In this document: in pieces, positions 8,179 through 29,457 of the stretch
Layout: every line of letters starts with the position of its first letter
Position numbering within the stretch: the stretch's first letter is position 1
DNA from: a virus
UHGV virus genome: UHGV-1280367
Reading direction: 5' to 3' (one strand)
Length of the DNA: 29,457 nucleotides
Made by a program: the position numbers and the translations under genes
Notes under the pieces: model-generated
Seen by the model: only the letters and a program-made list of their open reading frames with translations
What the model was told of the DNA's origin: nothing
The model's database searches: none

Positions 8179-8255
8179 TTACCGTTGAGGTAATAATTAT
8201 GCTTATTTGGTTTGGTGTCAATAGATATGAGTTAAAAAAATTACCCGTAAGGTAA
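8179..8255. promoter_or_regulatory. Leftward early promoter/operator region with two TTACC-N5-GGTAA palindromes (8179..8193, 8241..8255)
   Basis: Two exact copies of the palindrome lie between the repressor terminator and the first leftward gene. Confidence 0.5.
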
Positions 8256-8265
8256 TCTATCTGGC

Positions 8266-8292
8266 AATAAAAAAGCCGCCATGAGGCGGCTT
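8266..8292 (-). terminator. Rho-independent terminator of the repressor gene
   Basis: Hairpin gccgcc-atga-ggcggc with an A6 run on the + strand, giving a U-run on the minus-strand transcript. Lies just downstream of the repressor stop. Confidence 0.7.
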
Positions 8293-8312: not shown

Positions 8313-8897
8313 TTATTGTTTGCTTTTTTCGTTCTGGTTGATGACAAATTCAATGTAACTTTCGATCTTTGCTTTCTCGGTTTCGGGTAACAATGCGTAG
8401 CGCGAGCGGTCATAGTTGATGGTCGCAGGGTCGTGCGGGTGAATCAGTAATTCATAGCCGTGACGCCCGAATGCGGATGCCACATTCTCCAGGGTGGAAA
8501 TGGAAACGCTAACCTCATTGTTTAACAGGCGGCTGATTGTCACCTGGGCGACGCCGGATGCGCGGTGAAGTTTTCCCTGTGTTGAAAGGTCGCGGCTTTC
8601 GCTCATCCAGCGTTCCAGGTTGTGAGCCGCCAGCTGACCAATGTCGCTTGGGCCGACAGGCTGAAAACCTTCCTGAGAAAGCGAGCGATCGATATCAAGC
8701 CAGTTACGGGGTTTATTGGCGGCAGCTTCAATTTTTCGCGCAACCTGGTCGCCGATAACCTTCTTGCCAAGAGCCCAGCGGTTTACCAGATTTGCCTGAG
8801 TTCCAAGTTTTTCTGCCATCCGCGTCTGAACACCATTGAATTCACGGTCGATCAAGTCGTTGAGATTTTGCCTGCGGACGTCCTGGATACTTTTCAT
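8313..8897 (-). CDS. Phage repressor (CI-like), two helix-turn-helix regions, no S24 peptidase domain
   Basis: 194 aa. XRE-type HTH pattern near the N-terminus and a second HTH-like segment around residues 110-150. Divergent from the Cro-like gene across an operator-rich intergenic region. Confidence 0.65.
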   Translation of the reverse strand: MKSIQDVRRQNLNDLIDREFNGVQTRMAEKLGTQANLVNRWALGKKVIGDQVARKIEAAANKPRNWLDIDRSLSQEGFQPVGPSDIGQLAAHNLERWMSESRDLSTQGKLHRASGVAQVTISRLLNNEVSVSISTLENVASAFGRHGYELLIHPHDPATINYDRSRYALLPETEKAKIESYIEFVINQNEKSKQ

Positions 8898-8952: not shown

Positions 8953-9015
8953 TTACCCAACAGGTAAATGCACCTCATAGGTAACTATCCTTGATTTTTG
9001 TTACCTTATGGGTGA
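8953..9015. promoter_or_regulatory. Immunity-region operator cluster, three palindromes (8953..8967, 8970..8984, 9001..9015)
   Basis: TTACC-caaca-GGTAA, GCACC-tcata-GGTAA and TTACC-ttatg-GGTGA in the 154-bp repressor/cro intergenic region, arranged like an OR1-OR2-OR3 set. Confidence 0.55.
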
Positions 9016-9051
9016 ATATTTATTATCTGAAATAAATATCAGGCAATAGCT

Positions 9052-9282
9052 ATGAGCGATAACGGACATTTCGATTTCAAAAAGCACTGGCTTGCACTTA
9101 CTCCGGATGAGCGTGAAGCCTTCGCACAGGAAGCCGGAACGACGAGTCACTATATCCAGACTCACTTAACAGGTAAGCGCAAAATGCCAGGTAAAGTATT
9201 GATGAATGGGCTTTTTAAAGCCTGTAAAACAAGACAATGGCTGCGCTCAAAAGCAGAACTGGCATACTTCTTCTACTCATGA
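9052..9282 (+). CDS. Cro-like (YdaS/Cro family) DNA-binding protein
   Basis: 76 aa divergent from the repressor. HTH-like segment LTPDEREAFAQEAGTTSHYIQTHLTGKRKMP. Confidence 0.6.
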   Translation: MSDNGHFDFKKHWLALTPDEREAFAQEAGTTSHYIQTHLTGKRKMPGKVLMNGLFKACKTRQWLRSKAELAYFFYS

Positions 9283-9304
9283 TATCCAGCCACAACCCTC
9301 TGTA

Positions 9305-9328
9305 GACCGCCATCCGGCGGTCTTTTCA
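9305..9328 (+). terminator. Rho-independent terminator downstream of the cro-like gene (tR1-like position)
   Basis: Hairpin gaccgcc-atcc-ggcggtc followed by ttttcat. Confidence 0.6.
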
Positions 9329-9337
9329 TATCTATTC

Positions 9338-9352
9338 GCACCTTAAAGGTAA
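9338..9352. promoter_or_regulatory. Operator-like site GCACC-ttaaa-GGTAA
   Basis: Shares the core accttaaaggta with the site upstream of int. Lies between the tR1-like terminator and the zinc-ribbon gene. Confidence 0.4.
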
Positions 9353-11283: not shown

Positions 11284-11360
11284 TTACCTTCTAGGTAATA
11301 AAATATTCTAAAATCTATTGATTTCGTGTCTTATGTGGTTTTTAATTACCTCAGAGGTAA
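11284..11360. promoter_or_regulatory. Two TTACC-N5-GGTAA palindromes (11284..11298, 11346..11360) upstream of the DUF1064-like gene
   Basis: TTACC-ttcta-GGTAA and TTACC-tcaga-GGTAA. The second overlaps the ribosome-binding region of the gene starting at 11364. Confidence 0.5.
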
Positions 11361-11363
11361 ATC

Positions 11364-11708
11364 ATGAGAAAACAGATACAGGCTCTTGGTCGACTCAAAA
11401 CAGGCCAGATGAACAAAACAGAATCTGCGTATTGCCAGCACCTTGAGCAGCGTAAACGTGCAGGGGAAATCGCCTGGTATCGATTCGAGGGTATCAAGCT
11501 GCGGTTAGCTGACAACACGTTCTATACGCCCGATTTTGCTGTGATGCTCGCCACCGGCGAGATGGAACTGCACGAAGTGAAAGGTTTCTGGACCGACGAC
11601 GCCAGAGTGAAAACCAAAGTCGCCGCAGATCAGTATCCGTTCCGAATCATCGGGGTAACGGTTAAACCAAAGAAAGCAGGTGGTGGCTGGAACATCGAAG
11701 AGTTCTGA
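11364..11708 (+). CDS. DUF1064-like small protein
   Basis: 114 aa; pattern AGEI...Y.PDF.V...E.HEVKG resembles the DUF1064 family common in lambdoid early regions (recognition by eye). Confidence 0.5.
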   Translation: MRKQIQALGRLKTGQMNKTESAYCQHLEQRKRAGEIAWYRFEGIKLRLADNTFYTPDFAVMLATGEMELHEVKGFWTDDARVKTKVAADQYPFRIIGVTVKPKKAGGGWNIEEF

Positions 11709-11769: not shown

Positions 11770-12330
11770 ATGGAAAGTAATATCAAAGGGTTAGTTTACG
11801 CCGGGCATGAGATGGCTTCGGAACTGAAAGCAGAATGTGGTGCCGTTGATATGCGTAGTGTGGCAAAGCTGATCAGCGATTTGGCAACGCAACTGGAAGT
11901 GCAACTGGTGCGTGCTAATGCGATGGCGTCGGAGAATGAGGCGTTGAAGTCGAACCTGATTTACTGGGGCGGCGAAGATTCAGGGGCTGTCAGAAGTCCG
12001 CTTGATTACGCCCGTGCAGCCGGGCTGGAATCTGGAGAGGAGTTTGAGATGCAAGTGGCAGCCAGAATGCCGAACCTGACTTATCGCGTTGTGTCGAATT
12101 CCCGATTCAGAACAACAATAGAACTGGTTGACGGATCATTGCCGGAAACCCCAGCCACCGATGCTTTTCTGGCTGAAGTACGGGCGCAGGCGTTTAATGA
12201 CCTTTGCTCGGCGTTCGTTAAACACGCGAATCTCGCGGGAATGGATGATGGTGAGCTAGTGAGTCTTAAATATGCGACGGACGCCCTGCTGCATTGTGCG
12301 GAACAGCTTCGCAAAGGAGGCAACCAGTGA
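11770..12330 (+). CDS. Hypothetical protein
   Basis: 186-aa ORF with compact spacing to its neighbours; no recognisable motif. Confidence 0.4.
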   Translation: MESNIKGLVYAGHEMASELKAECGAVDMRSVAKLISDLATQLEVQLVRANAMASENEALKSNLIYWGGEDSGAVRSPLDYARAAGLESGEEFEMQVAARMPNLTYRVVSNSRFRTTIELVDGSLPETPATDAFLAEVRAQAFNDLCSAFVKHANLAGMDDGELVSLKYATDALLHCAEQLRKGGNQ

Positions 12331-15279: not shown

Positions 15280-15312
15280 TTACCACAACGGTAACTATTA
15301 CCACGGTGGTTA
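15280..15312. promoter_or_regulatory. Two operator-like palindromes immediately upstream of terS (15280..15294, 15298..15312)
   Basis: TTACC-acaac-GGTAA and the weaker variant TTACC-acggt-GGTTA, ending at the terS start codon. Confidence 0.4.
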
Positions 15313-15908: not shown

Positions 15909-17380
15909 CAGATACAGCGTTATCTCCTGAAGAGCAGTTGATCGAGGATATTGCAGGGTTCACTCACGATCCGCTTGGCTATGCTCTCTATGCGTTCCCG
16001 TGGGGGGAAGAGGGGACTGAACTGGCACATGCTACCGGCCCACGTCAATGGCAGGCTGATGCGTTCCGAGAGATACGTGATCACCTGCAGAATCCAGAGA
16101 CGCGCTATCAGCCGCTTATGCTGGCACGCGCTTCTGGTCACGGTATTGGTAAATCCGCATTTATCTCAATGCTGATCAACTGGGGCATGTCCACTTGCGA
16201 GGATTGTAAGGTCGTGGTGACCGCCAACACCGACAACCAGCTACGAACGAAGACCTGGCCGGAAATTATCAAGTGGTCAAACCTTGCTATCACGAAAGAC
16301 TGGTTTACCTGTACCGCTACCGCGATGTACAGCAATGACCCTGGGCACGACAAGCGGTGGCGAGCTGACGCAATCCCCTGGTCTGAGCACAACACTGAGG
16401 CATTCGCCGGACTACACAACGAGCGCAAACGCATCATCGTGGTATTCGATGAAGCGTCGAATATTGCCGATCTTGTGTGGGAGGTAGCAGAGGGTGCGCT
16501 GACGGACGAAGACACCGAAATCATCTGGGTGGCGTTCGGGAACCCGACGCGTAACACCGGGCGTTTCCGTGAATGTTTCCGCAAGTACAAACACCGCTGG
16601 AAGTGTGCGCAGATTGACAGCCGGACGGTGGAAGGCACTAACAAACAGCAGTTGCAGAAATGGGTTGATGACTACGGGGAAGACAGCGACTTCGTTAAAA
16701 TCCGTGTGCGCGGCATATTCCCTGATGCATCTGAATTGCAGTTTATCCCTACCGGTCTTACTGATGAGGCAATGAAACGGGTGGTAACCGCTGCGCAGGT
16801 TGCACATGCTCCGGTGATAATCGGCGTTGACCCGGCATACTCAGGCGTTGATGACGCGGTGATATACCTGCGGCAGGGGCTGCACAGTAAGGTGCTGTGG
16901 ACTGGCAACAAGACTACTGACGATCTGATTATGGCGAAGCGTATCGCTGACTTTGAAGACCAGTACCAGGCTGACGCAGTGTTCATCGACTTCGGTTACG
17001 GAACTGGTCTGAAGTCAATCGGTGACGGCTGGGGTCGTACATGGCAACTTGTTCCGTTCGGTGGCGCGTCTACTGACCCGCAGATGCTCAATAAGCGCGG
17101 GGAGATGTTCAACTCATGCAAGACATGGCTGAGGCTGGGCGGCATGCTGGATGACCAGGAAACAGCGGACGACCTGTCGGCGGCAGAGTACAAAGTTCGA
17201 GTGGACGGTAAAATCGTTATCGAACCGAAGGAAGATATCAAGGAGCGGCTTGGGCGCTCGCCGGGTAAAGGCGATGCGCTACTGCTGACGTTTGCTTTCC
17301 CTGTGTCGAAGCGTCTGCGAATTCCCGGGCAGCAGAACCAGCAAGGCAAGGCCATCACAGATTACGATCCCTATGATTAA
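15905..17380 (+). CDS. terL: Terminase large subunit
   Basis: 491 aa. Walker A-like ARASGHGIGKS and Walker B-like IIVVFDEAS, with a nuclease-like C-terminal half. GTG start overlaps the terS stop. Confidence 0.85.
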   Translation: MTDTALSPEEQLIEDIAGFTHDPLGYALYAFPWGEEGTELAHATGPRQWQADAFREIRDHLQNPETRYQPLMLARASGHGIGKSAFISMLINWGMSTCEDCKVVVTANTDNQLRTKTWPEIIKWSNLAITKDWFTCTATAMYSNDPGHDKRWRADAIPWSEHNTEAFAGLHNERKRIIVVFDEASNIADLVWEVAEGALTDEDTEIIWVAFGNPTRNTGRFRECFRKYKHRWKCAQIDSRTVEGTNKQQLQKWVDDYGEDSDFVKIRVRGIFPDASELQFIPTGLTDEAMKRVVTAAQVAHAPVIIGVDPAYSGVDDAVIYLRQGLHSKVLWTGNKTTDDLIMAKRIADFEDQYQADAVFIDFGYGTGLKSIGDGWGRTWQLVPFGGASTDPQMLNKRGEMFNSCKTWLRLGGMLDDQETADDLSAAEYKVRVDGKIVIEPKEDIKERLGRSPGKGDALLLTFAFPVSKRLRIPGQQNQQGKAITDYDPYD

Positions 17381-17430
17381 TCCGCTGGTGGGGATAATGT
17401 CGTTGATATCCTCTGATGAGGATAAAACAA

Positions 17431-17450
17431 AGCCAGCTCATCGGCTGGCT
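17431..17450. terminator. Hairpin after terL and downstream of the reverse cargo gene, possible bidirectional terminator
   Basis: agccagc-tcatcg-gctggct; on the minus strand it is followed by a T-rich tract (ttgtttta). A second hairpin lies at 17407..17424. Confidence 0.4.
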
Positions 17451-17470
17451 GTTTGTGACATGTCACAGAG

Positions 17471-17893
17471 CTAGAAAATAATTTCATCAAATGCAGCATT
17501 TATTGCCTTTGCTTCGCTAATGGCGCCTTGTTTATCGACAATAGCTTTTTTACCAAGCACCTCGGCAAGGCACTGTAGCTTCATGTTGTATAAGTGTTCG
17601 CTCATGTAATCATTATCACTTTTTGCTTTAGCGCAAACAGAGCGAGAAATATCAAACACATCGCCTTTTTCCATTTCAGAACGTTGTGCTGTTATCCAGT
17701 CATGGAACGTAACGCTAGTACCATGGTCTTCTCTAAGAGTTAACCCGGTCAGCCCCTCACTCTGAATTACTTCGTAATGCATTTCATTACCAGCAAAAAC
17801 GCCATAAAAAATGCAGTCTTCAGCCTGAACGATACGAGAATATTTTAATGGCCATTCATTTAGATACTTAGCCAACATATCAATTGTCTTCAT
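17471..17893 (-). CDS. Reverse-oriented cargo gene of unknown function (140 aa)
   Basis: The only minus-strand gene inside the late region. Visibly more AT-rich than its flanks. Ribosome-binding site AAGGTGAG ahead of the ATG. No motif I recognise; soluble, no transmembrane segment. Confidence 0.6.
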   Translation of the reverse strand: MKTIDMLAKYLNEWPLKYSRIVQAEDCIFYGVFAGNEMHYEVIQSEGLTGLTLREDHGTSVTFHDWITAQRSEMEKGDVFDISRSVCAKAKSDNDYMSEHLYNMKLQCLAEVLGKKAIVDKQGAISEAKAINAAFDEIIF

Positions 17894-17904
17894 AATCTCA
17901 CCTT

Positions 17905-17930
17905 AAAAAAATGCCCGGCGAACCGGGCGA
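17905..17930 (-). terminator. Intrinsic terminator (minus strand) between the tRNA and the cargo gene
   Basis: Minus-strand reading gcccgg-ttcg-ccgggc followed by ttttttt, then the cargo-gene ribosome-binding site and ATG. Confidence 0.65.
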
Positions 17931-18092
17931 ACTGGAAGCAATGAGTTATGCCTTCCGTGGCTGTACTGGTTTACAGCATGAAGTCATCGCAATGGCGTCC
18001 TGCTGTAAAAAGGGCGGTGATAGTCCTTCAAGGGAAACCATCACCGCCAAGCCCCCTGGAACTTCTGGCATCACGGTCCTTAGGCGTGATTC

Positions 18093-18169
18093 TGGCGTGG
18101 CATGCAGGATTCGAACCTGCGACCAACCGCTTAGAAGGCGGTTGCTCTGTCCAGCTGAGCTAATGCCAC
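18093..18169 (-). tRNA. tRNA-Arg, anticodon UCU
   Basis: Minus-strand sequence GTGGCATTAGCTCAGCTGGACAGAGCAACCGCCTTCTAAGCGGTTGGTCGCAGGTTCGAATCCTGCATGCCACGCCA folds by eye into a cloverleaf: 7-bp acceptor stem, D arm GCTC/GAGC, anticodon loop CTTCTAA, T arm GCAGG-TTCGAAT-CCTGC, encoded CCA. Close to E. coli argU as I recall it. Confidence 0.85.
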
Positions 18170-18491
18170 AACGCTGAGAGCACTTAGCCTGTTAAGGCGC
18201 CACACTTTGTCGCGGCTCCATAAATGCTCTCATCGTTGTACCCTCGTCTCTTCCGAGGTGTCACACCGAATCGCCTGGATGGTGAATCCCCGTGCGCGGA
18301 ATAAAACCGCTCGACTTGCACATTCCGGCTACCTGGTTCGTTTGCCCGAGCAAGGGAGGGTGCCCCTTAAACGTATCCAGACCGCTATCGGCGCATGTGC
18401 CATACGCCGTACTGCTCAAAATAAAAGCTCACTCCACCTGTTCAATTTAACGACAAGCCAGTCAGGTTAGTAACCGGAATGAACTCTTTGG

Positions 18492-18506
18492 TTACCTGAA
18501 AGGTAA
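18492..18506. promoter_or_regulatory. Operator-like palindrome TTACC-tgaaa-GGTAA upstream of the portal region
   Basis: Exact copy of the recurring motif, about 90 bp before the small ORF at 18597. Confidence 0.4.
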
Positions 18507-18596
18507 TAATTCGTGCGTTAAATGTCAACTGTCTACGATAAATAAATCATATGTGGTTAAATTGGTAATAATTTAATTGCGTACGGAGTCATTGAT

Positions 18597-18803
18597 ATGT
18601 GCATGGGTAGCTCACCATCAGTGCCTGCAACACCAGAAGTTCAGGCAGCACCACAGGAGCAGGATGCCGCCGTTGTTGATGCCCGCGACGAAGAAACTCG
18701 TCGCCGTCGCGCTGCTGCTGGTCGTAGTTCTACGCTGCTTACCGGTTCTCAGGGCGACACATCAACCGCTAATACCAGCGGTAAAACGCTGCTTGGTCAG
18801 TAA
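18597..18803 (+). CDS. Small low-complexity protein upstream of the portal gene (68 aa)
   Basis: ATG preceded by ggagtcattga, the same ribosome-binding context as the portal start (ccggagtcattga). Ala/Arg/Thr-rich. The overlapping ORF 18577..18816 in another frame is the less likely alternative. Confidence 0.35.
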   Translation: MCMGSSPSVPATPEVQAAPQEQDAAVVDARDEETRRRRAAAGRSSTLLTGSQGDTSTANTSGKTLLGQ

Positions 18804-18817
18804 CCGGAGTCATTGAA

Positions 18818-20497
18818 ATGGCGGAAACAACTAAAGAGCGATTGAACAAACAGTTCGCACAACTTGAAAGCGAGCGTCAGTCGTTCGAGCCGCACTGGCG
18901 CGAGTTGAGTGATTACATCAACCCGCGTGGTTCCCGCTTTCTGACTTCTGAGGTCAACCGTAACGATCGACGCAATACACGCATTATTGATTCGACCGGG
19001 ACTATGGCGGCGCGCACTCTCGCCAGCGGCATGATGTCAGGCATCACAAGCCCCGCGCGTCCGTGGTTTCGCCTGGCTACGCCAGATCCTGAAATGATGG
19101 ATTATGGCCCTGTTAAGTTGTGGCTTGAGGCGGTGCAGAACCGCATGAACGATATGTTCAATAAGTCGAATCTCTATCAGTCGCTGCCGCAGTTATACGG
19201 AAGCCTCGGCACATACAGCACTGGTGCAATGGCAGTGCTGGAGGATGACGAGGACATCATTCGCACAATGCCATTCCCGATAGGAAGTTACTACCTGGCT
19301 AACTCACCTCGTGGCAGTGTGGACACCTGTTTTCGCAAGTTCTCTATGACTGTTCGTCAGCTTGTTCAGGAGTTCGGGCTAAATAACGTCAGCGAATCCG
19401 TAAAAAGCATGTGGGAAAGCGGCACCTACGAGAAGTGGATTGAAGTGATGCATTCGGTTTACCCGAACATTGACCGCGATACATCGAAGCTGGATAGCAA
19501 GAACAAGCCATTCAAATCGGTTTATTACGAGGTTGGTGGCGATAACGACAAGTTGTTGCGTGAGTCCGGATTCGATGAGTTTCCAATTATGGCTCCGCGC
19601 TGGGAAGTTAACGGCGAAGATGTTTATGGATCATCATGCCCGGGTATGCTGGCGCTTGGACCTGTTAAGGCATTGCAGCTTCTCCAGAAGCGCAAGTCGC
19701 AGTTGATTGATAAAGCCACCAATCCGCCGATGGTTGCTCCGACTTCCCTCAAGAATCAGCGCGCCTCCCTTCTTCCTGGCGACATCACGTATATCGATCA
19801 GATTACTGGTCATGATGGTTTCAGGCCTGCTTATCTGGTTAACCCCAGTACAGCAGATTTGGTGGCAGACATTCAGGACACTCGTCAAATCATTAACAGC
19901 GCCTACTTTGTCGATCTGTTCATGATGTTGCAGAACATCAATACCCGCTCGATGCCTGTTGAAGCGGTGATCGAAATGAAAGAAGAAAAACTTCTGATGT
20001 TGGGGCCGGTTCTGGAGCGTCTGAACGACGAATGTCTTAATCCTCTCATTGACCGCGCTTTCTCGATGATGGTGCGTAAAAACATGCTGCCGCCACCGCC
20101 TGACGCGATGGAAGGTATGCCCCTGAAGGTCGAATACATTTCCGTCATGGCTCAGGCGCAGAAGTCTATCGGCCTGTCCAGTCTGGCGTCTACGGTCAAC
20201 TTCATTGGTCAACTTGCGCAAGCGAAACCAGAAGCTCTCGACAAACTCAACGTTGATCAGGCGATCGATGCATTCGCTGATATGTCCGGAGTGTCTCCAA
20301 CCGTCATTGTTCCGCAGGAACAGGTTGAGCAGGCTCGCCAGCAACGGGCACAGCAACAACAGCAGCAACAAATGATGGAGATGGGGATGGCGGCGGCACA
20401 GGGTGCCAAGACGCTAAGCGAAGCTAAAACTTCGGATCCGAGTGTTTTGTCAGCTATGGCGAATGCAGTTAGTGGTCAGGGTGGGCAATCACAATGA
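18818..20497 (+). CDS. Portal (head-to-tail connector) protein, T7 gp8-like
   Basis: 559 aa. The C-terminal Gln-rich tail QARQQRAQQQQQQQMMEMGMAAAQGA parallels the T7 gp8 C-terminus (QKQQKMAQQSMQMGMDNGAAALAQG) as I recall it. Size and position fit. Confidence 0.75.
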   Translation: MAETTKERLNKQFAQLESERQSFEPHWRELSDYINPRGSRFLTSEVNRNDRRNTRIIDSTGTMAARTLASGMMSGITSPARPWFRLATPDPEMMDYGPVKLWLEAVQNRMNDMFNKSNLYQSLPQLYGSLGTYSTGAMAVLEDDEDIIRTMPFPIGSYYLANSPRGSVDTCFRKFSMTVRQLVQEFGLNNVSESVKSMWESGTYEKWIEVMHSVYPNIDRDTSKLDSKNKPFKSVYYEVGGDNDKLLRESGFDEFPIMAPRWEVNGEDVYGSSCPGMLALGPVKALQLLQKRKSQLIDKATNPPMVAPTSLKNQRASLLPGDITYIDQITGHDGFRPAYLVNPSTADLVADIQDTRQIINSAYFVDLFMMLQNINTRSMPVEAVIEMKEEKLLMLGPVLERLNDECLNPLIDRAFSMMVRKNMLPPPPDAMEGMPLKVEYISVMAQAQKSIGLSSLASTVNFIGQLAQAKPEALDKLNVDQAIDAFADMSGVSPTVIVPQEQVEQARQQRAQQQQQQQMMEMGMAAAQGAKTLSEAKTSDPSVLSAMANAVSGQGGQSQ

Positions 20498-20790
20498 CAG
20501 ATTACGAAGACGATCAACTGAAAGAAGAAAACGCCCGTAAGCAACGTGACATGGCGCAGCGTGAAATTGATGACATTCGCTTTGTCATGAGCAGTGAACA
20601 GGGGCGTCGCGTTGTCTGGTCTGTGCTGGAGAAAGGCCGGGTGTTTTCCGCTATCTCTCCGATGGACGCTATGGCAATGGCATTTTATGAGGGGCAACGC
20701 AATCTGGCGCTGGAGCTGTTTCAGCGCGTTATGGCGCATTGCCCTGAACAGTATTTGAAGATGGCCAAAGAGGCCAGTGAACAGGAGTGA
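20494..20790 (+). CDS. Hypothetical head-assembly protein
   Basis: 98-aa ORF translationally coupled between the portal and scaffold genes. Confidence 0.4.
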   Translation: MTDYEDDQLKEENARKQRDMAQREIDDIRFVMSSEQGRRVVWSVLEKGRVFSAISPMDAMAMAFYEGQRNLALELFQRVMAHCPEQYLKMAKEASEQE

Positions 20791-20792
20791 TC

Positions 20793-21500
20793 ATGAATTT
20801 ATTTGAGCGTTTGCTGTATCGCCGTCTTTGCAATGAGCAATCCACTGAAGGTGGCCAGGCAGATACAGCTTCAACGGGAGCAACTGAAACCACTCAGGGC
20901 TCGGGTGAAATGCAGGAGCAAACCCAGTCGCAGGATAACTCCCAGGGGACTGACTCTGAGAAAGGTTCTGAAGCTCAGAAAACTGAGGGAGAGCTTGCTG
21001 CTGAAAAAGCCAATACCGAAGAAGCAGAAAAGGATAAGAAGCCAGAGGGTGCGCCTGAGAAGTACGAGTTTCAGGCTGCCGAAGGCGTAGAGCTGGATAC
21101 AGAAGCGTTGAAGGAATTCGAGCCGGTGGCGCGAGAACTTAACCTGACCAACGAGCAAGCGCAAAAGCTGGTTGATGCTTATCCGAAGATTCTGGCAGGT
21201 GTTCAGCAGCGCCAGGCAGAAGCCTGGCAGAAAACAACCGAGCAGTGGGCTGCGGATGTAAAAGCTGACAAAGAAATCGGTGGCGACAAGTTGATTTCTA
21301 ACCTTAGCGCCGCACAGCGTGCGCTTGACCAGTTCGGGACACCTGAACTCAAAGAATATCTGAACACCACCGGGCTGGGTAATCACCCTGATCTGGTCAA
21401 AACGTTCGTGAAAATCGGAAAGGCGATGTCTGAAGATGGCATGGTCACCGGTGGTAATGAAGGCCAGCGTAGTGCGGCCGAAGTGCTCTATGGCAAATAA
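20793..21500 (+). CDS. Scaffolding protein
   Basis: Highly acidic, Glu/Gln/Lys-rich, predicted-helical protein between the portal and capsid genes. ATG at 20793 with an AGGAG ribosome-binding site. Confidence 0.65.
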   Translation: MNLFERLLYRRLCNEQSTEGGQADTASTGATETTQGSGEMQEQTQSQDNSQGTDSEKGSEAQKTEGELAAEKANTEEAEKDKKPEGAPEKYEFQAAEGVELDTEALKEFEPVARELNLTNEQAQKLVDAYPKILAGVQQRQAEAWQKTTEQWAADVKADKEIGGDKLISNLSAAQRALDQFGTPELKEYLNTTGLGNHPDLVKTFVKIGKAMSEDGMVTGGNEGQRSAAEVLYGK

Positions 21501-21514
21501 GAGAGGAAATGACA

Positions 21515-22501
21515 ATGGCTGTTAAAGGCTTAACTGCGCTAACGCTGGCTGACTGGGGTAAGCGCGTCGATCCAAACGGGAAAGTCGATAAGATTATCGA
21601 GCTTCTCGGTCAAACTAACCCGATCCTTCAGGATATGCCTTTTGTCGAAGGGAACCTTCCTACCGGACACCGAACCACCATTCGTTCTGGTTTACCTTCA
21701 GCTACCTGGCGTTTGCTGAACTATGGCGTACAGCCAAGCAAATCAACCACAGTGCAGGTCACCGACTCCGTTGGCATGCTGGAAACCTATGCTGAAGTCG
21801 ATAAGTCACTGGCTGATCTGAACGGTAATACCGCCGAATTCCGCCTGTCTGAAGACCGCGCATTTATTGAAGCGATGAATCAGCAGATGGCGCAGACGCT
21901 GTTTTATGGTGATTCCAGCGTTAACCCTCAGCAGTTTATGGGACTGTCCTCCCGCTATTCCAGCCTGTCTGCGGGTAATGCTCAGAACATCATTGATGCT
22001 GGTGGCACGGGTACAGATAACACCTCAATCTGGTTAGTGGTGTGGGGCGAAAACACCGTGCATGGCATCTTCCCGAAAGGGCAGAAGGCTGGCATCCAGA
22101 TGGAAGATAAAGGCCAGGTGACACTGGAAGATGCTAATGGCGGCAAGTACGAAGGCTATCGCACCCATTACAAATGGGATAACGGACTTGCTCTGCGTGA
22201 CTGGCGTTATGTTGTTCGCATTGCAAACATCGATGTCAGCAATCTTTCAGAACCTTCCTATGCCGCAAATATTGCGAAGTTGATGGTTAAAGCACTGCAT
22301 CGCATTCCAAACCGTGGCATGGGCCGCCCGGTGTTCTACATGAACCGCACTGTAGGCCAGGCTCTTGATCTGCAGTCTCTGGAGAAAACATCTCTGGCTA
22401 TCAGCGTAAAGGAGACTGAAGGCGAGTGGTGGACTTCATTCCGTGGTGTACCAATCCGTGAAACTGATGCGCTTCTGGAAACAGAAGCCCGCGTGGTGTA
22501 A
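21515..22501 (+). CDS. Major capsid protein
   Basis: About 330 aa directly after the scaffold gene, with a GAGAGGA ribosome-binding site 7 nt upstream of the ATG at 21515. Assigned by position and size only. Confidence 0.65.
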   Translation: MAVKGLTALTLADWGKRVDPNGKVDKIIELLGQTNPILQDMPFVEGNLPTGHRTTIRSGLPSATWRLLNYGVQPSKSTTVQVTDSVGMLETYAEVDKSLADLNGNTAEFRLSEDRAFIEAMNQQMAQTLFYGDSSVNPQQFMGLSSRYSSLSAGNAQNIIDAGGTGTDNTSIWLVVWGENTVHGIFPKGQKAGIQMEDKGQVTLEDANGGKYEGYRTHYKWDNGLALRDWRYVVRIANIDVSNLSEPSYAANIAKLMVKALHRIPNRGMGRPVFYMNRTVGQALDLQSLEKTSLAISVKETEGEWWTSFRGVPIRETDALLETEARVV

Positions 22502-22552
22502 CGCCTGTTATTAACCTGTGGGTCGTAACAGACCCACTAATGGAGAAAGAAG

Positions 22553-22990
22553 ATGATCACCGACAAACTGTTGATGTTCTCCGAAGCACAGGCGGTAACT
22601 GATACCGCTGCTTCTACTGACGTAATCGATCTCGGTCCAATTGACGGAAAACGTCGTGATATCGGCGTGGGTTACCCGCTTGAGTTTTGGGCGCTGGTTA
22701 ACACAGCCGCCGCAGCAAGCGGTGATGCAACTGTAAACATCCAGTTGCAGACGAGTGAGGATAACAGATCATGGACCACTATTTATGATAGTGGTGCACT
22801 GGCAAAGACCACCCTGACAGCAGGTAAACGAGTTGTTTCTGCAAAGGTGCCTGCCGGTGTTCAGCGATATCTGCGTGTTAACTACTCCGTCGCAACTGGC
22901 CCACTAACGGCTGGCGAATTCACTGCTGGTATCAGTCTTGATGTTGATGCCAATACGCCGTATCCGATCCGCTCAAAAGTAACTGGTTAA
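22553..22990 (+). CDS. Putative capsid decoration or accessory structural protein
   Basis: 145 aa with a good ribosome-binding site (GGAGAAAG), directly after the capsid gene. Function inferred from position only. Confidence 0.35.
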   Translation: MITDKLLMFSEAQAVTDTAASTDVIDLGPIDGKRRDIGVGYPLEFWALVNTAAAASGDATVNIQLQTSEDNRSWTTIYDSGALAKTTLTAGKRVVSAKVPAGVQRYLRVNYSVATGPLTAGEFTAGISLDVDANTPYPIRSKVTG

Positions 22991-23000
22991 GGTGATATCG

Positions 23001-23336
23001 ATGTCAGGTGAGAAACCAAGATACCGCGTTCTGCGCCTCTCTCATATCCATAACACTCTGTGGCCGGAGGGGGCAGAAATCGAATACGAAGGTGAGCCTG
23101 GTAGCGCACTGGAACCTGTTAACGATGCAGCCAGACAGGCAAAAGCAAAAGTTGCAGGAAAAGTGTCAATGGCAGCAACCAGCACCAAAATCATCAACGA
23201 TGTGTCAGATGATGGTGAACTGGATAAGCTCCGTGAAGAGTACGAATTGCTCTTTAACGAGAAGCCACACCATAACGCCAAAGCCGAAACGCTCCGCGAG
23301 AAGATCGCAGATAAGCGTAAAGAACTGGGCGTGTAA
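23001..23336 (+). CDS. Hypothetical structural-module protein
   Basis: ATG at 23001 with an AAGGTGA ribosome-binding site (the track ORF starts at a GTG at 22992). Charged, helix-prone. Confidence 0.35.
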   Translation: MSGEKPRYRVLRLSHIHNTLWPEGAEIEYEGEPGSALEPVNDAARQAKAKVAGKVSMAATSTKIINDVSDDGELDKLREEYELLFNEKPHHNAKAETLREKIADKRKELGV

Positions 23337-23352
23337 GCCTCGCGGATCAGAC

Positions 23353-23376
23353 AAGGGGCTTCGGCCCCTTTATTGC
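23353..23376 (+). terminator. Terminator-like hairpin after the capsid block
   Basis: aaggggc-ttcg-gcccctt (UUCG tetraloop) followed by tattg; the T tract is short. Confidence 0.5.
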
Positions 23377-23386
23377 AGGAGTGTAT

Positions 23387-23710
23387 ATGGAACTCGTAAA
23401 CCTCAAAACCGGCACTGACAGCTACCAGGATGAGAGCGGAGAAACCAGAACTCGCGATGAATACCCGTGGGGGCTGTGCATCACTCTTAATAACGACACA
23501 TTGAATAAGCTGAAGGCGCAACCTCAGGGCGTCGGAACAGAAGTGATGATAACTGCAAAGGCTGTTATTCGAGGCCTGTCTGCCAGAGAAACTGACGATG
23601 GTGTTAATCGCAGCGCCGATCTGCAGATCACTGATATGGCAATCGCTCCTGTTTCCGGTGATGTAGAAAAATCAGCGGCTGAAACTCTGTACGGCAATGG
23701 GGGTGAGTAA
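23387..23710 (+). CDS. Hypothetical virion protein
   Basis: ATG at 23387 with an AGGAG ribosome-binding site; stop overlaps the next gene's start. Confidence 0.35.
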   Translation: MELVNLKTGTDSYQDESGETRTRDEYPWGLCITLNNDTLNKLKAQPQGVGTEVMITAKAVIRGLSARETDDGVNRSADLQITDMAIAPVSGDVEKSAAETLYGNGGE

Positions 23711-24315
23711 TGGCCTCTGTAGTAGAGATCTGCAATCGTGCGCTGTCCAATATTGGCAACAGCCGCAGCATTAACAGCCTGACGGAAGCCAGCAAGGAAG
23801 CGGGGGAATGTTCGCTGCACTTTGAGGCCTGCCGTGATGCTGTGCTTTCTGATTTTGACTGGAACTTTGCTACCAAACGCGTGGCGCTTGCAGATACGAG
23901 CAATCCACCGCCTGACTGGGAATATGCGTACCAGTACCCGTCCGATTGTCTGCGCATTACTGAAATTATGCTTCCTGGTGTACGCAATCCAACAGCAGCA
24001 ATGCGCGTTCAGTACGAAGTTGGTGCAGACACCAACGGAACAGGAAAGTTGATCTACACAGACCAGCCGCAGGCATGGCTCAAGTATGTATCTCGCGTTT
24101 CAGATGTGAACATGTTTGATGCCATTTTTATGGAGGCGTTGGCCTGGCGTCTTGCGGCAGCTATTAACATGGCGCTGACTGGGAATGCAGACCTCGGTAC
24201 GTTTGCCCTCAATATGTACAATCGCGTGATTCTTAGTGCTGGCTCGCATAGCCAGAATGAATCACAGGAACCACAGCCACCGGTTGACGAGTTTACCATT
24301 GCGAGGTTGTCCTGA
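23710..24315 (+). CDS. Tail tubular protein A / adaptor (T7 gp11-like)
   Basis: 201 aa. Size, position before a gp12-like gene and an N-terminal pattern (ICNRALSNIGNSRSINSL) resembling T7 gp11. Confidence 0.5.
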   Translation: MASVVEICNRALSNIGNSRSINSLTEASKEAGECSLHFEACRDAVLSDFDWNFATKRVALADTSNPPPDWEYAYQYPSDCLRITEIMLPGVRNPTAAMRVQYEVGADTNGTGKLIYTDQPQAWLKYVSRVSDVNMFDAIFMEALAWRLAAAINMALTGNADLGTFALNMYNRVILSAGSHSQNESQEPQPPVDEFTIARLS

Positions 24316-26786
24316 TGGCTATCAGTTGGATCCAGCCCAGCTTTGCCGGTGGTGAGATTGGACCGTCGTTGTACGGTCGTATCGACATGGCGAAGTACCA
24401 GGTGGCATTGCGCAAGTGCGATAACTTTATCGTGCGGCAGTATGGCGGCGTTGAGAATCGACCTGGTACGCGTTTTGTCGGTGCCGCCAAATACCCAAAT
24501 CGGAAATGCCGCCTGATCCCGTTCCAGTTCTCGACTGTTCAGACCTATGCTCTGGAGTTCGGACACCAGTACATGCGCGTTATCAAAGATGGTGCGTTGG
24601 TGCTGAACAGCAGCAATGTTATTTATGAAATTGCCACGCCATATACTGAAGCCGATCTGTTCCGAATTAAATTTACGCAAAGCGCCGACGTGCTTACGCT
24701 GGTTCACCCGGCATACCCGCCGAAAGAGTTGCGCCGCTATGCGCATGACAACTGGCAACTGGTTGATGTGGTAACGAAGAACGGGCCATTTGAAGATATC
24801 AATATTGACGAGTCAGTGACGGTTTATGCCAGCGCCAGCACCGGGACAATTACGTTAACGGCAAGCGCCTCTATTTTTGGCGCGGAGCAGGTAGGCAAAT
24901 TGTTCTATCTGGAACAGCCTGCAGTGGATTCAGTGCCGGTATGGGAAACCAGTAAGAGTACGTCGATTGGCGATATTCGCCGTGCAGACAGTAACTACTA
25001 TCGCGCCGTTACAGCAGGCAAAACAGGCACTTTGCGCCCTTCGCATACAGAAGGCACATCATGGGATGGCTGGGGCGGATCCGGTGATGATGATACTGGC
25101 ATTGAGTGGGAGTATCTGCACAGTGGTTTTGGCATTGCCCGTATCACTGCTGTAAACGGCACTACTGCAACTGCCGAGGTGATTTCCTATATCCCTTCGC
25201 AGGTCGTTGGCGAGGATAATGCCAGCTATAAATGGGCTAAATATGCCTGGAACAGTGTTAATGGTTATCCTGGCACTGTTGTTTATTATCAACAACGTCT
25301 TTACTTCGCCGCATCGACTGCGTTCCCTCAGACTATCTGGGCCAGCCGTACCGGGGATTATAAGGATTTTGGCAAAAGCAATCCTACGCAGGATGACGAC
25401 AGAATTATCTACACCTATGCCGGACGTCAGGTTAATGAGATCCGCCACCTGATTGATGTCGGTTCGCTGGTGGCGCTGACTTCCGGAGGTGAGTACGTCA
25501 TCACCGGCGACCAGAACAAAGTGTTAACCCCATCATCATTTGCATTCAGCTCTCAGGGATCAAATGGCTCAAGCAACGTCCCACCAATTGCTGTGGCGAA
25601 TATTGCTCTGTTTGTCCAGGAGAAAGGCAGCGTTGTCCGTGATCTGGCCTACTCATTCGATGTTGACGGCTATCAGGGGAACGACCTGACCATCCTTGCC
25701 AATCATCTTTTTCAGAAGCACAGCATTGTTGACTGGTGCTTCTCGATAGTCCCTTACTCCAGCGCCTTCTGCATCCGTGATGACGGTAAATTACTGGTGA
25801 TGACCTATTTGCGTGATCAACAGGTTTTTGCATGGGCACCACAGTCCAGTACCGGAAAATATGAAAGCACATGCAGTATCAGCGAAGGCAATGAAGATGC
25901 GGTGTATTTCGTCGTTAACCGAACCGTTAACGGGCAAACAGTGAGATACATCGAGAGACTGTCTAGCCGTTTATTTACCAGCGATGAAGATGCTTTCTTT
26001 GTTGATTCTGGCCTTAGCTATGATGGAAGAAATACGTCTGACAGAACGATGACCATCACTGGTGGTTCTGGCGAATGGGATTATCGCGCGGAATATACAA
26101 TCAGTGTTTCTGGTGGTGCGTACTTCACCAGTAGTGATGTCGGCGCGCAACTACAGTTCCCTTATGTCGGAACTGATCCTGATACTGGCGATGAAGTGTC
26201 AAAAGAATTACGTTGCGACATTATTTCTGTAACCAGCAATACCGCTGTAGTGGTTCGTGCTAACAGGAACGTCCCGCCATCCCTCAGGAATGTGGCCACC
26301 ACGAACTGGCAGATGGCGCGCCGGACATTTGGAGGCCTGTCTCATCTTGAAGGCCAGACCGTAAACATTCTCTCTGATGCGAACGTGGAGCCACAGAAAG
26401 TGGTTTCCGGAGGTGCCGTCACGCTGGAATCTCCGGGGGCTGTAGTGCACATCGGCCTGCCAATAACTGCTGAATTCGAAACACTGGATATCAACATTAA
26501 CGGACAGGAAACGCTGCTGGACAAAAAACAGGTGATCCCGTCCGTTACTCTGGTTGTGAATGCCAGTCGCGGCATCTGGGCGACTACGCCCGGCGGTAAA
26601 TGGTACGAATATCCACAGCGTGAATTCGAGTTCTACGATGATCCTGTTGATGATGCTACCGGAAAAGTAGAAGTGAAACTGGACAGTAACTGGGGCAAAA
26701 ACGGACGTGTAAAAATCCGTCAGCTTGACCCGTTGCCGCTGTCTGTTCTTGCCGTTATTCCTCGCCTTACTGTTGGGGGATTCTGA
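24315..26786 (+). CDS. Tail tubular protein B / nozzle (T7 gp12-like)
   Basis: 823 aa. N-terminus MAISWIQPSFAGGEIGPSL parallels T7 gp12 MALISQSIKNLKGGISQQP as I recall it. Size and gene order are consistent. Confidence 0.55.
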   Translation: MAISWIQPSFAGGEIGPSLYGRIDMAKYQVALRKCDNFIVRQYGGVENRPGTRFVGAAKYPNRKCRLIPFQFSTVQTYALEFGHQYMRVIKDGALVLNSSNVIYEIATPYTEADLFRIKFTQSADVLTLVHPAYPPKELRRYAHDNWQLVDVVTKNGPFEDINIDESVTVYASASTGTITLTASASIFGAEQVGKLFYLEQPAVDSVPVWETSKSTSIGDIRRADSNYYRAVTAGKTGTLRPSHTEGTSWDGWGGSGDDDTGIEWEYLHSGFGIARITAVNGTTATAEVISYIPSQVVGEDNASYKWAKYAWNSVNGYPGTVVYYQQRLYFAASTAFPQTIWASRTGDYKDFGKSNPTQDDDRIIYTYAGRQVNEIRHLIDVGSLVALTSGGEYVITGDQNKVLTPSSFAFSSQGSNGSSNVPPIAVANIALFVQEKGSVVRDLAYSFDVDGYQGNDLTILANHLFQKHSIVDWCFSIVPYSSAFCIRDDGKLLVMTYLRDQQVFAWAPQSSTGKYESTCSISEGNEDAVYFVVNRTVNGQTVRYIERLSSRLFTSDEDAFFVDSGLSYDGRNTSDRTMTITGGSGEWDYRAEYTISVSGGAYFTSSDVGAQLQFPYVGTDPDTGDEVSKELRCDIISVTSNTAVVVRANRNVPPSLRNVATTNWQMARRTFGGLSHLEGQTVNILSDANVEPQKVVSGGAVTLESPGAVVHIGLPITAEFETLDININGQETLLDKKQVIPSVTLVVNASRGIWATTPGGKWYEYPQREFEFYDDPVDDATGKVEVKLDSNWGKNGRVKIRQLDPLPLSVLAVIPRLTVGGF

Positions 26787-27250
26787 TGATCGACGTTCAA
26801 ATTATTCCCGCTACCGAAGAGCATCTTCAGATGATTTTGCCGGATGTTCGTCAAGCTGATATTGACGAACTGTATGCGGTATCACTGATGACTACCGAAG
26901 ATGCGCTGCGTGTTGGTCTTCGCACTGCGACTATGGCCTGGTCAGGGTTCGCGAACGGAGAACTGGTAACCATGTTTGGTGTATCTCCGGCGTCAATGAT
27001 CGGTGGCAATGGTACGCCCTGGCTGGTCGGTACCAGCCATATTGAAAAATATCAGAAGACATTTCTGCGCCACTGCCGCCCTGTATTGCACCAGATGCTG
27101 GCAGTTTATCCGCGCCTGGAAAACTACGTCGACGAGCGAAACCATGTTGCCAAATCATGGCTGCACTGGCTTGGATTCAGGCTTGAAGAAGCCGCGCCTT
27201 ATGGTGCTCTTGGTCTTAATTTCCACAGATTTCACATGGAGAGAAAATAA
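26786..27250 (+). CDS. Internal virion protein (gp13-like position)
   Basis: 154-aa ORF between the gp12-like and gp14-like genes, translationally coupled (ATGA). Assigned by position. Confidence 0.35.
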   Translation: MIDVQIIPATEEHLQMILPDVRQADIDELYAVSLMTTEDALRVGLRTATMAWSGFANGELVTMFGVSPASMIGGNGTPWLVGTSHIEKYQKTFLRHCRPVLHQMLAVYPRLENYVDERNHVAKSWLHWLGFRLEEAAPYGALGLNFHRFHMERK

Positions 27251-27828
27251 TGTGTAACCCAGCCATCGCTTTGGTTGCCGTCACAGTGGCATCCACAGCC
27301 GCGTCAATGTACAGCCAGAGCAAGCAGGCAAAATACCAGTCAGCCATAGCTGATCGGAATGCTGAAATTGCTGAAGCTCAGGCACAGGATTCAATCAATC
27401 GTGGGAATATTGAAGCGGATCAGCGTCGTCGTGAAATGCGTCAACGCTCAGGTACTGCGGCGGCCACTATGGGGGCTACCGGTGCGGAATTAAGTAGCGG
27501 AACAGCTCTTGACGTTTTTGCGGATAATGCTCAGTTCGGCACTCTTGATGCGTTAACGACAGTGAATAATGCTCAGCGTGAGGCATATGGGTATCAGGTT
27601 CAGGGAATGAATGCTCAGGCACAGGGGGCTGCTGCTCAGTCGGCTGCTAAATCATCGATGACCAGCACTTTGTTAACGGCACCACTAAAAGCATACGGTG
27701 CATACCAGATGGGCGGCGGAACGTGGAGCCCGTTCTCTAAAGGAAGTACATCTGGTGGTGGGACGCCAATGCTATCTAACTCAGGTTTTATGAATTCTGA
27801 CTCCCGATTCAAAATAGGAGGTTACTGA
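27250..27828 (+). CDS. Internal virion protein B (T7 gp14-like)
   Basis: 192 aa. N-terminus MCNPAIALVAVTVASTAAS...QAK parallels T7 gp14 MCWAAAIPIAISGAQAISGQNAQAK as I recall it. Ala/Gln-rich. Confidence 0.55.
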   Translation: MCNPAIALVAVTVASTAASMYSQSKQAKYQSAIADRNAEIAEAQAQDSINRGNIEADQRRREMRQRSGTAAATMGATGAELSSGTALDVFADNAQFGTLDALTTVNNAQREAYGYQVQGMNAQAQGAAAQSAAKSSMTSTLLTAPLKAYGAYQMGGGTWSPFSKGSTSGGGTPMLSNSGFMNSDSRFKIGGY

Positions 27829-29457
27829 TGCCTGTTGTTCCTACTACATCCGGACGCCAGGTGCAAAGTCGTGGTGTGCAAACCGGTGGTTTTCAGACCT
27901 TCGATGTTCCTCAAGCAGGTCAGGTGCTGGCGAATGTCGCAGATCAGTATGCGGTGGCATATGGTGAAGCCAGGCAGAAAGCGAATGTTGCTATGGCCCA
28001 GGAGGCGTTACTGCAATTTAACCAATTTGCAGATGACCAGATTAACAACCCTGAAAATGGGCTGATTTCTAAACAGGGTAAAAACGCTCTTGGTCAGAGT
28101 GACGCTGTTATGAAAAATATGCAGGAAAGGGCTCAGGCATTATTAGGCTCAATCCCTGAAAGTGAGGAAAGGAATAAATTATCCTTTCAACTCCAGCAGT
28201 CTATGCAGTCTTATTACAATCAGGCACGTCGATATGAAGTTGGGCAGTTTCAGCAATTCCAAGATCAAACGTATTTGTCAGGAAATGCATTGGCTGTCAC
28301 TCAGTCTGCGGGGCTATATAGCGATAACCAAGCATTTGTCGATTTAGCCAAGCAGCGATTTGAATCTATTGATCAATACGCTGATGCGCATGGGCTTCCT
28401 GATGAGTGGCGTGTTCAGCAGAAAACTCAGCTCAAGGAACAAATGGGGCAGCAAGCATGGATAGGAAATATCGCTCAAAAATACAACGAGTTTCTTCAGG
28501 TTAATGGAGAGCCAGGGGATCTTGGTGGTGTGAGTCGTGCAATATCACATGGTAATTCATTGGATGCTCGTGGTTTACGTAATAATAACCCTGGTAATAT
28601 TGAAGCGAGCAAATCTAACCCGTGGGAAGGTCAGATCGGTAGCGATGGACGTTTTGCAACGTTTGCTACCCCTGAGCATGGAATCCGCGCGTTGGGTAAA
28701 AATATGTTGTCTTACCAGCGTCAAGGCTATGACACCGTTAGCGAGATTGTTAATCGCTATGCTCCGGCTAGTGATGGTAATAATACTGATGCTTATATTA
28801 GGGCATTGTGTGGTGAGCTTGGTGTTGGGGAGAATGATCAGCTTGATATCTCTAACCCAAAGACACTAGCTGCTTTATGTGCTGGGATTATTAAACACGA
28901 AAATGGCAGTATGCCTTATAGCACCGAACAGCTTGAAACTGGTATCTCGGCAGCCCTTGGTCTAACTAACCTTGATTCACCTAAGCGTTATACGGGCAAT
29001 GCGGCATTTGATGCTATGAGCCCTCAAATGCAAATACAGGCATTGAGGCAGGCTAATGAGCTGAGAAATCAGTACCGCCAGCAGTATGCGGACCAGCTTA
29101 GCACCGTAGTTAAAGATGCATATTCAGCCCTTGATGAAGGATTGAAACCTGAGAAGTTACCTTCTGAGGACGATTTTATCCGGGCCAATGGTCCGCGCAT
29201 TGGCGCTATGAAGTGGAAGGATATGCAGGCGCAGATACAATATGGAGGTGTCATTGGTGCCGCTAAAGACCTCACTCCAGAAGGACGACAAGACATTCTT
29301 GAACGTTTACGTCCACAGGATCCAAACGCTCCTGGATTTGCTGCTAACCAGCAACGCTGGGAGAAAATGCAGGCCAAATTTAAAGAGATGGATAGGGAGT
29401 GGGAGATTCAGCAGGGAAGAAACAGGTTCGTGTCTTCAATGCAAAATAACTTCCCGC
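27828..29457 (+). CDS. Internal virion/ejection protein (gp15-like), 3' end outside the window
   Basis: ATG at 27828 overlaps the gp14-like stop. I translated this frame by hand and found no stop before the window end (at least 543 codons). It is absent from the ORF track because it lacks a stop. Confidence 0.55.
   Translation, partial: MPVVPTTSGRQVQSRGVQTGGFQTFDVPQAGQVLANVADQYAVAYGEARQKANVAMAQEALLQFNQFADDQINNPENGLISKQGKNALGQSDAVMKNMQERAQALLGSIPESEERNKLSFQLQQSMQSYYNQARRYEVGQFQQFQDQTYLSGNALAVTQSAGLYSDNQAFVDLAKQRFESIDQYADAHGLPDEWRVQQKTQLKEQMGQQAWIGNIAQKYNEFLQVNGEPGDLGGVSRAISHGNSLDARGLRNNNPGNIEASKSNPWEGQIGSDGRFATFATPEHGIRALGKNMLSYQRQGYDTVSEIVNRYAPASDGNNTDAYIRALCGELGVGENDQLDISNPKTLAALCAGIIKHENGSMPYSTEQLETGISAALGLTNLDSPKRYTGNAAFDAMSPQMQIQALRQANELRNQYRQQYADQLSTVVKDAYSALDEGLKPEKLPSEDDFIRANGPRIGAMKWKDMQAQIQYGGVIGAAKDLTPEGRQDILERLRPQDPNAPGFAANQQRWEKMQAKFKEMDREWEIQQGRNRFVSSMQNNFP

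Follow-up and report, generated by a model that had tools for sequence, protein, structure and literature searches.

The locus analyzed here comprises a repressor gene, rep, which corresponds to the open reading frame (ORF) at positions 8313-8897 (−), together with its flanking control elements, in a stretch of 29,457 nucleotides of the virus genome UHGV-1280367 that was studied as a whole and is called the window in the following. The gene starts with an ATG, ends with the stop codon at 8313-8315 and encodes a protein of 194 amino acids (Rep). Directly downstream of rep there is a terminator-like hairpin (8273-8292, −), an equivalent of which is annotated in phiV10. Divergently oriented from rep, a cro-like gene encoding 76 amino acids (9052-9282, +) is the first of the rightward early operon; its product matched phrog_35 (transcriptional repressor) with an E-value of 5.6e-13, and the gene is followed by a terminator (9304-9323) and then by an operator-like site (9338-9352).

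The window belongs to a phiV10-like Uetakevirus, with 96-98% nucleotide identity over 60-77% of a 25-kb query, and covers about 29.5 kb of a genome of roughly 39.5 kb. When it was mapped on PAS61, it began with the lysis genes, included int, the early region and the head genes, and ended within the first large injection-protein gene. According to the same map, the remaining injection proteins, the antirepressor gene ant, the tailspike gene and oac lie in the approximately 10 kb outside the window. At positions 1-2980, holin-like, endolysin and Rz-like lysis genes lead straight into attP/int and guaA is absent, unlike in the prophages L016-L025. This continuity between the lysis genes and attP/int, together with the lack of guaA, indicates that the window derives from a virion-type or circularly permuted assembly and not from an integrated prophage junction. 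The lysis region also contains an extra holin-like ORF of 137 amino acids (529-942, +; phrog_198), located after a membrane-protein gene and before the 102-amino acid ORF 929-1237, which is taken to be the holin; the equivalent interval of PAS61 does not carry the 137-amino acid holin-like gene.

The domain organization of Rep was analyzed by profile searches and by structure prediction. Its first four residues (M1, K2, S3, and I4) were unchanged in all of 38 homologues aligned. Pfam HTH_3 matched Rep with 38.5 bits (cut-off, 23 bits) in two stretches, the best one at residues 106-147, and a Cro/YdaS-like helix-turn-helix (HTH) was matched at residues 21-61 with 20.9 bits, a value under the cut-off of the Cro/YdaS-like family. 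An AlphaFold2 model built with 38 homologues (mean pLDDT of 73.5) was all-helical, with two domains at residues 4-59 and 84-193, and a pLDDT below 50 for the intervening residues 65-83. Accordingly delimited on the DNA, the N-terminal domain (residues 1-64; AlphaFold2 helices and YdaS/Cro-like match) is encoded at 8706-8897 (−) and includes an HTH at residues 24-43 (8769-8828, −) with ANLVNRWAL as the probable recognition helix; the flexible, low-pLDDT linker (residues 65-83) is encoded at 8649-8705 (−); and the C-terminal domain (residues 84-194; HTH_3-like fold according to Pfam, the PDB 5d4z match and Foldseek) at 8316-8648 (−), with its HTH at residues 107-125 (8523-8579, −). A previous reading of this DNA made from the letters alone (the sequence-only reading) had described a repressor of 194 amino acids with two HTH-like regions, and both the exact limits of the ORF and the two helical domains agree with that description. 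A toxin-antitoxin reading of Rep was discarded, since the NCBIfam matches to RstR, HigA, and HipB were all far under their cut-offs.

In a phmmer search against the PDB, residues 1-190 of Rep matched entry 5d50_A, named 'Repressor', with an E-value of 3.5e-42, and the C-terminal part of the protein matched 5d4z_A, which covers residues 92-198 of the Rep protein of Salmonella phage SPC32H, with an E-value of 3.6e-20. The entries 5D4Z and 5D50 correspond to SPC32H Rep solved alone and in complex with the antirepressor Ant, respectively. They were also the top matches of the Rep model in a Foldseek search against the PDB, where SPC32H Rep entries alone reached significant E-values (TM of 0.79 and rmsd of 2.5 for 5d4z_H) and the lower-ranked matches were XRE-type HTH proteins such as SinR, DdrO, Stl, and HigA. 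By tblastn, Rep showed 42.7% identity to SPC32H rep over 99% of its length; analyzed by parts, the N-terminal domain was 53% and the C-terminal domain 41% identical, and residues 73-88, the linker as delimited for this sequence comparison, were 25% identical, with indels.

Among phage genomes, tblastn identified the repressor of Escherichia phage HEMP4 as identical to Rep (100%), and those of phiV10, vB_EcoP_ZX5 (ZX5), PAS61, phiv142-3, and the O157 typing phages 9 and 10 as 99.5% identical. Repressors of Enterobacter phages were 75-78% identical, and those of Klebsiella phages, epsilon15 and the SPC32H/SPN1S group about 43-45% identical. The homologues of Rep fell into 86 clusters with full-length members of about 190-235 amino acids, and Pfam domains other than HTH types were listed in none of them. 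The exact Rep sequence was present in 11,962 blocks of the assembly collection, with the prophages integrated beside guaA. The Rep family is common in prophages of Enterobacteriaceae, and this type of E. coli prophage is very common. The GenBank record of phiV10 describes PhiV10p40 as 'putative transcriptional repressor; two helix-turn-helix motifs', and that of epsilon15 cites 5d50_A for gp38, the orthologue of Rep. Furthermore, overexpression of ZX5 ORF21, the 99.5% identical repressor, blocked the lytic cycle, abolished free phage and decreased endolysin and holin transcripts by more than 99.9% (PMC9782041). Hence Rep is already known: phiV10/epsilon15-type E. coli phages use it as their ordinary repressor of lysogeny, and the system has been solved structurally.

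We also analyzed whether Rep carries the architecture of a self-cleaving repressor. Searches against Pfam, NCBIfam, and PHROGs returned neither an S24 domain nor any other peptidase for Rep, the S24/peptidase fold was absent among the Foldseek matches in the PDB, and no Ala-Gly or Cys-Gly dipeptide occurs in the whole protein of 194 amino acids. The AlphaFold2 model consists of helices throughout, in contrast to the beta fold of S24 domains. The proposal that Rep is a cryptic self-cleaving protein of the LexA/CI kind, or a direct target of RecA, would account for the response of phiV10-type prophages to DNA damage (see below), but this response is equally explained by a LexA-controlled ant, and the lack of an S24 match in Pfam or NCBIfam, the helical model without peptidase relatives in Foldseek, the missing dipeptides, and the full-length alignment of Rep to a solved non-peptidase repressor all argue against it. 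At the level of sequence and fold this proposal is effectively refuted, and we consider its probability to be negligible. The sequence-only reading had regarded RecA-stimulated self-cleavage as unlikely; the two findings named there as refuting it that can be searched for in silico, a hidden S24 fold and a site for cleavage, did not turn up, which, together with the homology to the Ant-inactivated Rep of SPC32H, strengthens that judgment.

The functions of the two domains can be proposed by analogy with SPC32H. A DNA-binding role of the N-terminal domain of SPC32H Rep is summarized in PMC9638917, and the equivalent domain of the Rep protein studied here is probably the operator-binding one. 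Residues N36, R40, and W41 were invariant across the family, and the recognition helices of Rep (ANLVNRWAL) and SPC32H Rep (QNLVNRWCT) have NLVNRW in common. The C-terminal HTH-like region of Rep corresponds to the SPC32H Rep fragment that was crystallized as a homotetramer and that is bound by Ant. By the same analogy, the C-terminal domain would serve for oligomerization and for docking of Ant and would not read the operator, so that its HTH fold is best read as one re-used for these purposes and not as a second operator reader.

In order to locate candidate binding sites, the 15-bp palindrome TTACC-N5-GGTAA was counted over the whole window with up to one mismatch allowed. There were 11 such sites, starting at positions 662, 2925, 8179, 8241, 8953, 9001, 11284, 11346, 15280, 15298, and 18492, in comparison with 0.31 expected, and none of 100 shuffles reached 11; all but one of the 11 were promoter-proximal. 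On the left of rep, two perfect palindromes (8179-8193 and 8241-8255), 62 bp apart, flank a PL-like promoter on the minus strand (−35 TTGACA at 8216-8221, −10 at 8193-8198). Between rep and the cro-like gene, a right cluster (8953-9015) contains three 15-bp palindromes with spacings of 17 and 31 bp, namely a perfect one (8953-8967), one with two mismatches (8970-8984) and one with a single mismatch (9001-9015), the last of which overlaps the −35 and the spacer of a PR-like promoter (8998-9026, +). Another pair of perfect palindromes that are 62 bp apart (11284-11298 and 11346-11360) lies upstream of the gene starting at 11364, a pair 18 bp apart (15280-15312) is located at the start of the small-terminase gene, a single perfect site (18492-18506) is found upstream of the head-gene operon, and a one-mismatch site (2925-2939) is placed 57 bp upstream of the integrase start (2982).

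The genome of SPC32H carries TTACC-N5-GGTAA at syntenic places and with spacings nearly those of the window. Its right cluster has the same layout (palindromes at 34390, 34407, and 34437, with spacings of 17 and 30 bp), the pair at 11284/11346 has equivalents at 35972 and 36034, the pair at 15280 has equivalents at 12 and 30, and the palindrome before the integrase gene, at 26960, has the identical sequence and the same offset as that at 2925-2939 of the window. In the epsilon15 record, sites syntenic to the left pair are annotated as 'protein_bind: repressor; lysogeny', and positions 12-27 (compare the 15280 pair) and 2931-2947 (compare 18492) are annotated as repressor sites; a further annotated repressor palindrome separates gp19, the homologue of ant, from the tailspike gene. 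On the basis of position, conservation and database annotation, the TTACC-N5-GGTAA sites are probable operators of Rep. Palindromes precede almost every transcription unit, and their pairs are often 17-18 bp or exactly 62 bp apart. This arrangement, with spacings conserved in SPC32H, suggests that Rep acts directly on the entire genome to silence it, and it might do so by bridging the members of a pair.

An antirepressor was searched for in the window by tblastn with SPC32H Ant, ZX5 Ant, and the Bro-N antirepressor of ZX5 as queries, and nothing significant was obtained. Likewise, none of 20 small ORFs scanned in the window matched an antirepressor PHROG, so that by tblastn and by PHROG scans of these 20 ORFs the window contains no antirepressor of the Bro-N, ANT, KilAC, or P22 type. 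The absence of a recognizable antirepressor gene from the window, already stated in the sequence-only reading, was thereby confirmed. The C-terminus of ORF 11770-12330 (HCAEQLRK) was considered as Ant-like and rejected, as its match to the Ant C-terminus comprises 8 residues only and is too short. The pattern CTGT-N8-ACAG occurs twice in the window (17961-17976 and 22516-22531) versus 0.40 expected, and 7 of 100 shuffles did as well. Neither occurrence was retained as the promoter site of an SOS-controlled antirepressor. The site at 17961, which is located between a tRNA-Arg gene (18093-18169, −) and a terminator-like hairpin upstream of ORF 17471-17893 (−), agrees by eye with about 12 of the 20 consensus positions, has a poor spacer, and is cut off by that hairpin from the ORF, which belongs to phrog_4846, of unknown function. 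The site at 22516 also has a poor spacer, and both sites are probably due to chance.

The region beyond the window was approached through its close relatives. An exact-protein look-up with the product of ORF 27250-27828, the last complete one in the window, retrieved ten prophage loci. One of them, L007, differs from positions 17250-29457 of the window by one mismatch in 12,208 bases (99.99% identity). Past the point where the window ends, L007 carries genes for two large injection proteins, followed by three small genes, and then encodes a Bro-N protein of 236 amino acids and an Ant protein of 85 amino acids before the tailspike gene is reached. The ant gene occupies positions 19521-19778 of this locus, and its start codon is about 7.57 kb past the last base of the window. 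It is preceded by TACTGTATAAACATACAGTT, which agrees with the LexA consensus TACTGTATATATATACAGTA at 17 of 20 positions, and slightly further upstream of this LexA box there is the palindrome TTACCTTTCAGGTAA. At least one ORF with an Ant domain was present in each of the ten related prophage loci. As read from these near-identical relatives, the ant gene of the genome studied here would lie off the right end of the window.

In SPC32H, ant (86 amino acids; 19676-19936, −) is flanked by the last of the injection-protein genes and by the tailspike gene. Along the genome map, its distance from rep is about 14 kb in one direction and about 25 kb in the opposite one, and the LexA box CTGTATAAACATACAG is found just upstream of ant. 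In HEMP4, which encodes an identical Rep, ant is preceded by TACTGTATATTTATACAGTT, and ZX5 has TACTGTATAAATATACAGTT at the same place. In fact, a LexA box before ant was conserved wherever the ant locus was readable. The deposited genomes of SPC32H and SPC32N, the latter of which we take to be a clear-plaque variant of the former, differ by two bases, and one of the two changes converts CTGT into CTTT in the LexA box of ant. Homologues of Ant were found in 35 phage records, essentially those that carry Rep, and, counted by phage record, a full-length Rep homologue was accompanied by an Ant homologue in 35 of 36 cases; the exceptions between both sets were a Pseudomonas phage, with a partial match to the N-terminal part of Rep, and BP9, whose prophage-like segment reaches the end of the record. 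The sequence-only reading had proposed that induction might depend on an antirepressor encoded outside the window behind a LexA box, and in HEMP4 and L007 a near-consensus box followed by ant is what was found.

With these data, we consider it highly likely that the product of rep is the master repressor of a phiV10-like Uetakevirus prophage and that it is switched by SOS-induced Ant without cleavage of Rep. As summarized in PMC9638917, SPC32H Rep is a tetramer on palindromic sites, with the DNA-binding pairs formed across dimers, and SPC32H Ant is itself a tetramer that binds two Rep dimers and breaks the Rep tetramer; further summaries of this mechanism are given in a 2025 bioRxiv paper and in a review on Salmonella prophages (PMC7380047). 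Transferred to the present genome, a Rep tetramer joined via its C-terminal domains would bind the palindromes by its N-terminal domains and keep lytic transcription silent. Upon DNA damage, active RecA would promote the self-cleavage of LexA, and ant would be derepressed. The Ant tetramer would then dock on the C-terminal domains of two Rep dimers, break the DNA-binding tetramer and free the operators, and the prophage would be induced. Inactivation of Rep would consist of a reversible sequestration in which the protein stays uncleaved, and the SOS response would induce the prophage without Rep cleavage because LexA represses ant. Tetramerization and Ant binding are extrapolated to this Rep, given that only 43% of its residues, and 41% of those in the C-terminal domain on which Ant would dock, are identical in SPC32H Rep. 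In accordance with the LexA/Ant route, a DNA-damaging microcin induced prophages of the phiV10 species 21- and 47-fold (bioRxiv 10.64898/2026.05.26.727859).

That 21- to 47-fold induction, the LexA box conserved before ant, and the position in this box of one of the two differences between SPC32H and SPC32N argue against the alternative that induction is largely independent of SOS and Ant and stems from spontaneous derepression, from the Cro-like protein as a competitor or from some other host signal, the role of Rep being confined to setting immunity. Such an alternative would agree with the spontaneous release of about 10^7 PFU/mL by ZX5 lysogens (PMC9782041) and with the Cro-like protein of 76 amino acids that is encoded divergently across the same operator cluster. 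We nevertheless consider it very improbable.

A further question is which protein of the ant locus inactivates Rep. The phiV10-like phages encode, downstream of ant, a larger antirepressor of the Bro-N type (ORF4 in ZX5, PhiV10p23 in phiV10, and 18495-19205, −, in L007), which could be the main inactivator of Rep, with the Ant protein of 85 amino acids being accessory or redundant. The antirepressor tested in the ZX5 study was this Bro-N protein and not the small Ant, and its overexpression decreased lysogens from 10^9 to 10^6 and repressor transcripts by 75% (PMC9782041). The C-terminal approximately 75 residues of ORF4 are 42% identical to Ant (E-value of 8e-16), so ORF4 could dock on Rep as Ant does; moreover, the Bro-N gene lies downstream of the LexA box on the same strand, and the PHROG families of its product are labeled anti-repressor. 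However, no antirepressor other than the small Ant is encoded at this locus in epsilon15 or in SPC32H, the phage that served to define the switch, and the effect of ZX5 ORF4 was partial. In addition, an annotated terminator separates PhiV10p24 (ant) from PhiV10p23, which makes their co-transcription uncertain. We therefore regard a leading role of the Bro-N protein as unlikely, and retain the small Ant as the probable switch of Rep, although both proteins are not mutually exclusive.

The sequence of Ant recurs as the C-terminal 75-80 residues, approximately, of 'antirepressor' proteins with Bro-N, P22_AR_N, or ORF6N domains, with 40-42% identity and E-values of 1e-12 to 8e-16. Fusions of this kind were observed in L007 (18495-19205, −), L004, which corresponds to ZX5 (1078-1773, −), L010 (17768-18706, +), and L014 (18415-19134, −), in the variable locus that separates the injection-protein genes from the tailspike gene. 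That ZX5 ORF4 is such a fusion is not mentioned in PMC9782041. L010 and L015 carry, at 16976-18706, a set of genes similar to P22 immI, consisting of an Arc-family repressor, a small ORF, and a P22_AR_N antirepressor with an Ant-like end, and in part of the family the antirepressors may thus be subject to a second layer of control that does not involve LexA. Ant is about 87% identical between SPC32H (L001) and the phiV10-type loci (L002 and L007), while the corresponding Reps are only about 43% identical, which implies either that the interface is a small conserved patch or that Ant works across lineages. As a tentative idea, which we hold to be possible but rather less than probable, Ant could be a portable Rep-docking module, free or fused, so that one SOS locus would supply several Rep-binding proteins, and, in view of its high conservation between phages with divergent Reps, it might cross-induce co-resident Uetakevirus prophages that belong to different lineages.

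The relevance of these observations resides mainly in correct annotation. A repressor without a peptidase domain need not be puzzling in this family, where induction is known to proceed through an antirepressor under LexA control. Ant has no Pfam family, is assigned to PHROG 450 (phrog_450) as 'unknown function', and is named 'hypothetical protein' in most of the phage records listed; for these reasons, automated pipelines will keep missing the antirepressor in this type of prophage. A partial window can also conceal a partner gene, ant being about 26 kb from rep along the genome map.

Compared with known systems, Rep is closest to its counterparts in phiV10 (PhiV10p40), ZX5 (ORF21), and HEMP4, which are effectively the same protein (99.5-100% identity) and differ from it in nothing of substance; epsilon15 gp38 belongs to the same family, with 43% identity. 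The resemblance to SPC32H Rep comprises the size (194 versus 198 amino acids), the two helical domains, and the homology over the full length, as well as the same genome position of rep, divergent from a cro-like gene, the syntenic TTACC-N5-GGTAA sites, and the conserved NLVNRW helix, and relatives with an identical Rep have an 87% identical Ant behind a LexA box. The differences with respect to SPC32H are the overall identity of 43%, the diverged linker with indels, operator spacers that are less A/T-rich in the window, and the presence in phiV10-like phages of a second Ant-domain protein, the Bro-N fusion, downstream of ant. Gifsy-1, Gifsy-2, Gifsy-3, and Fels-2 (Lemire et al., 2011; PMC3121763), as well as the CI/Tum pair of phage 186, share the same logic of an uncleavable repressor, a small LexA-repressed antirepressor, and sequestration, but their repressors and antirepressors are unrelated in sequence, with no homology detected in PHROG and Pfam scans. 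Finally, Rep resembles lambda CI, P22 C2, and LexA in having an N-terminal HTH and, like a master repressor of lysogeny, in acting on divergent early promoters, whereas it differs from them in that it has no S24 domain, Ala-Gly site, or Ser/Lys dyad, its C-terminal domain being an HTH-like helical bundle.
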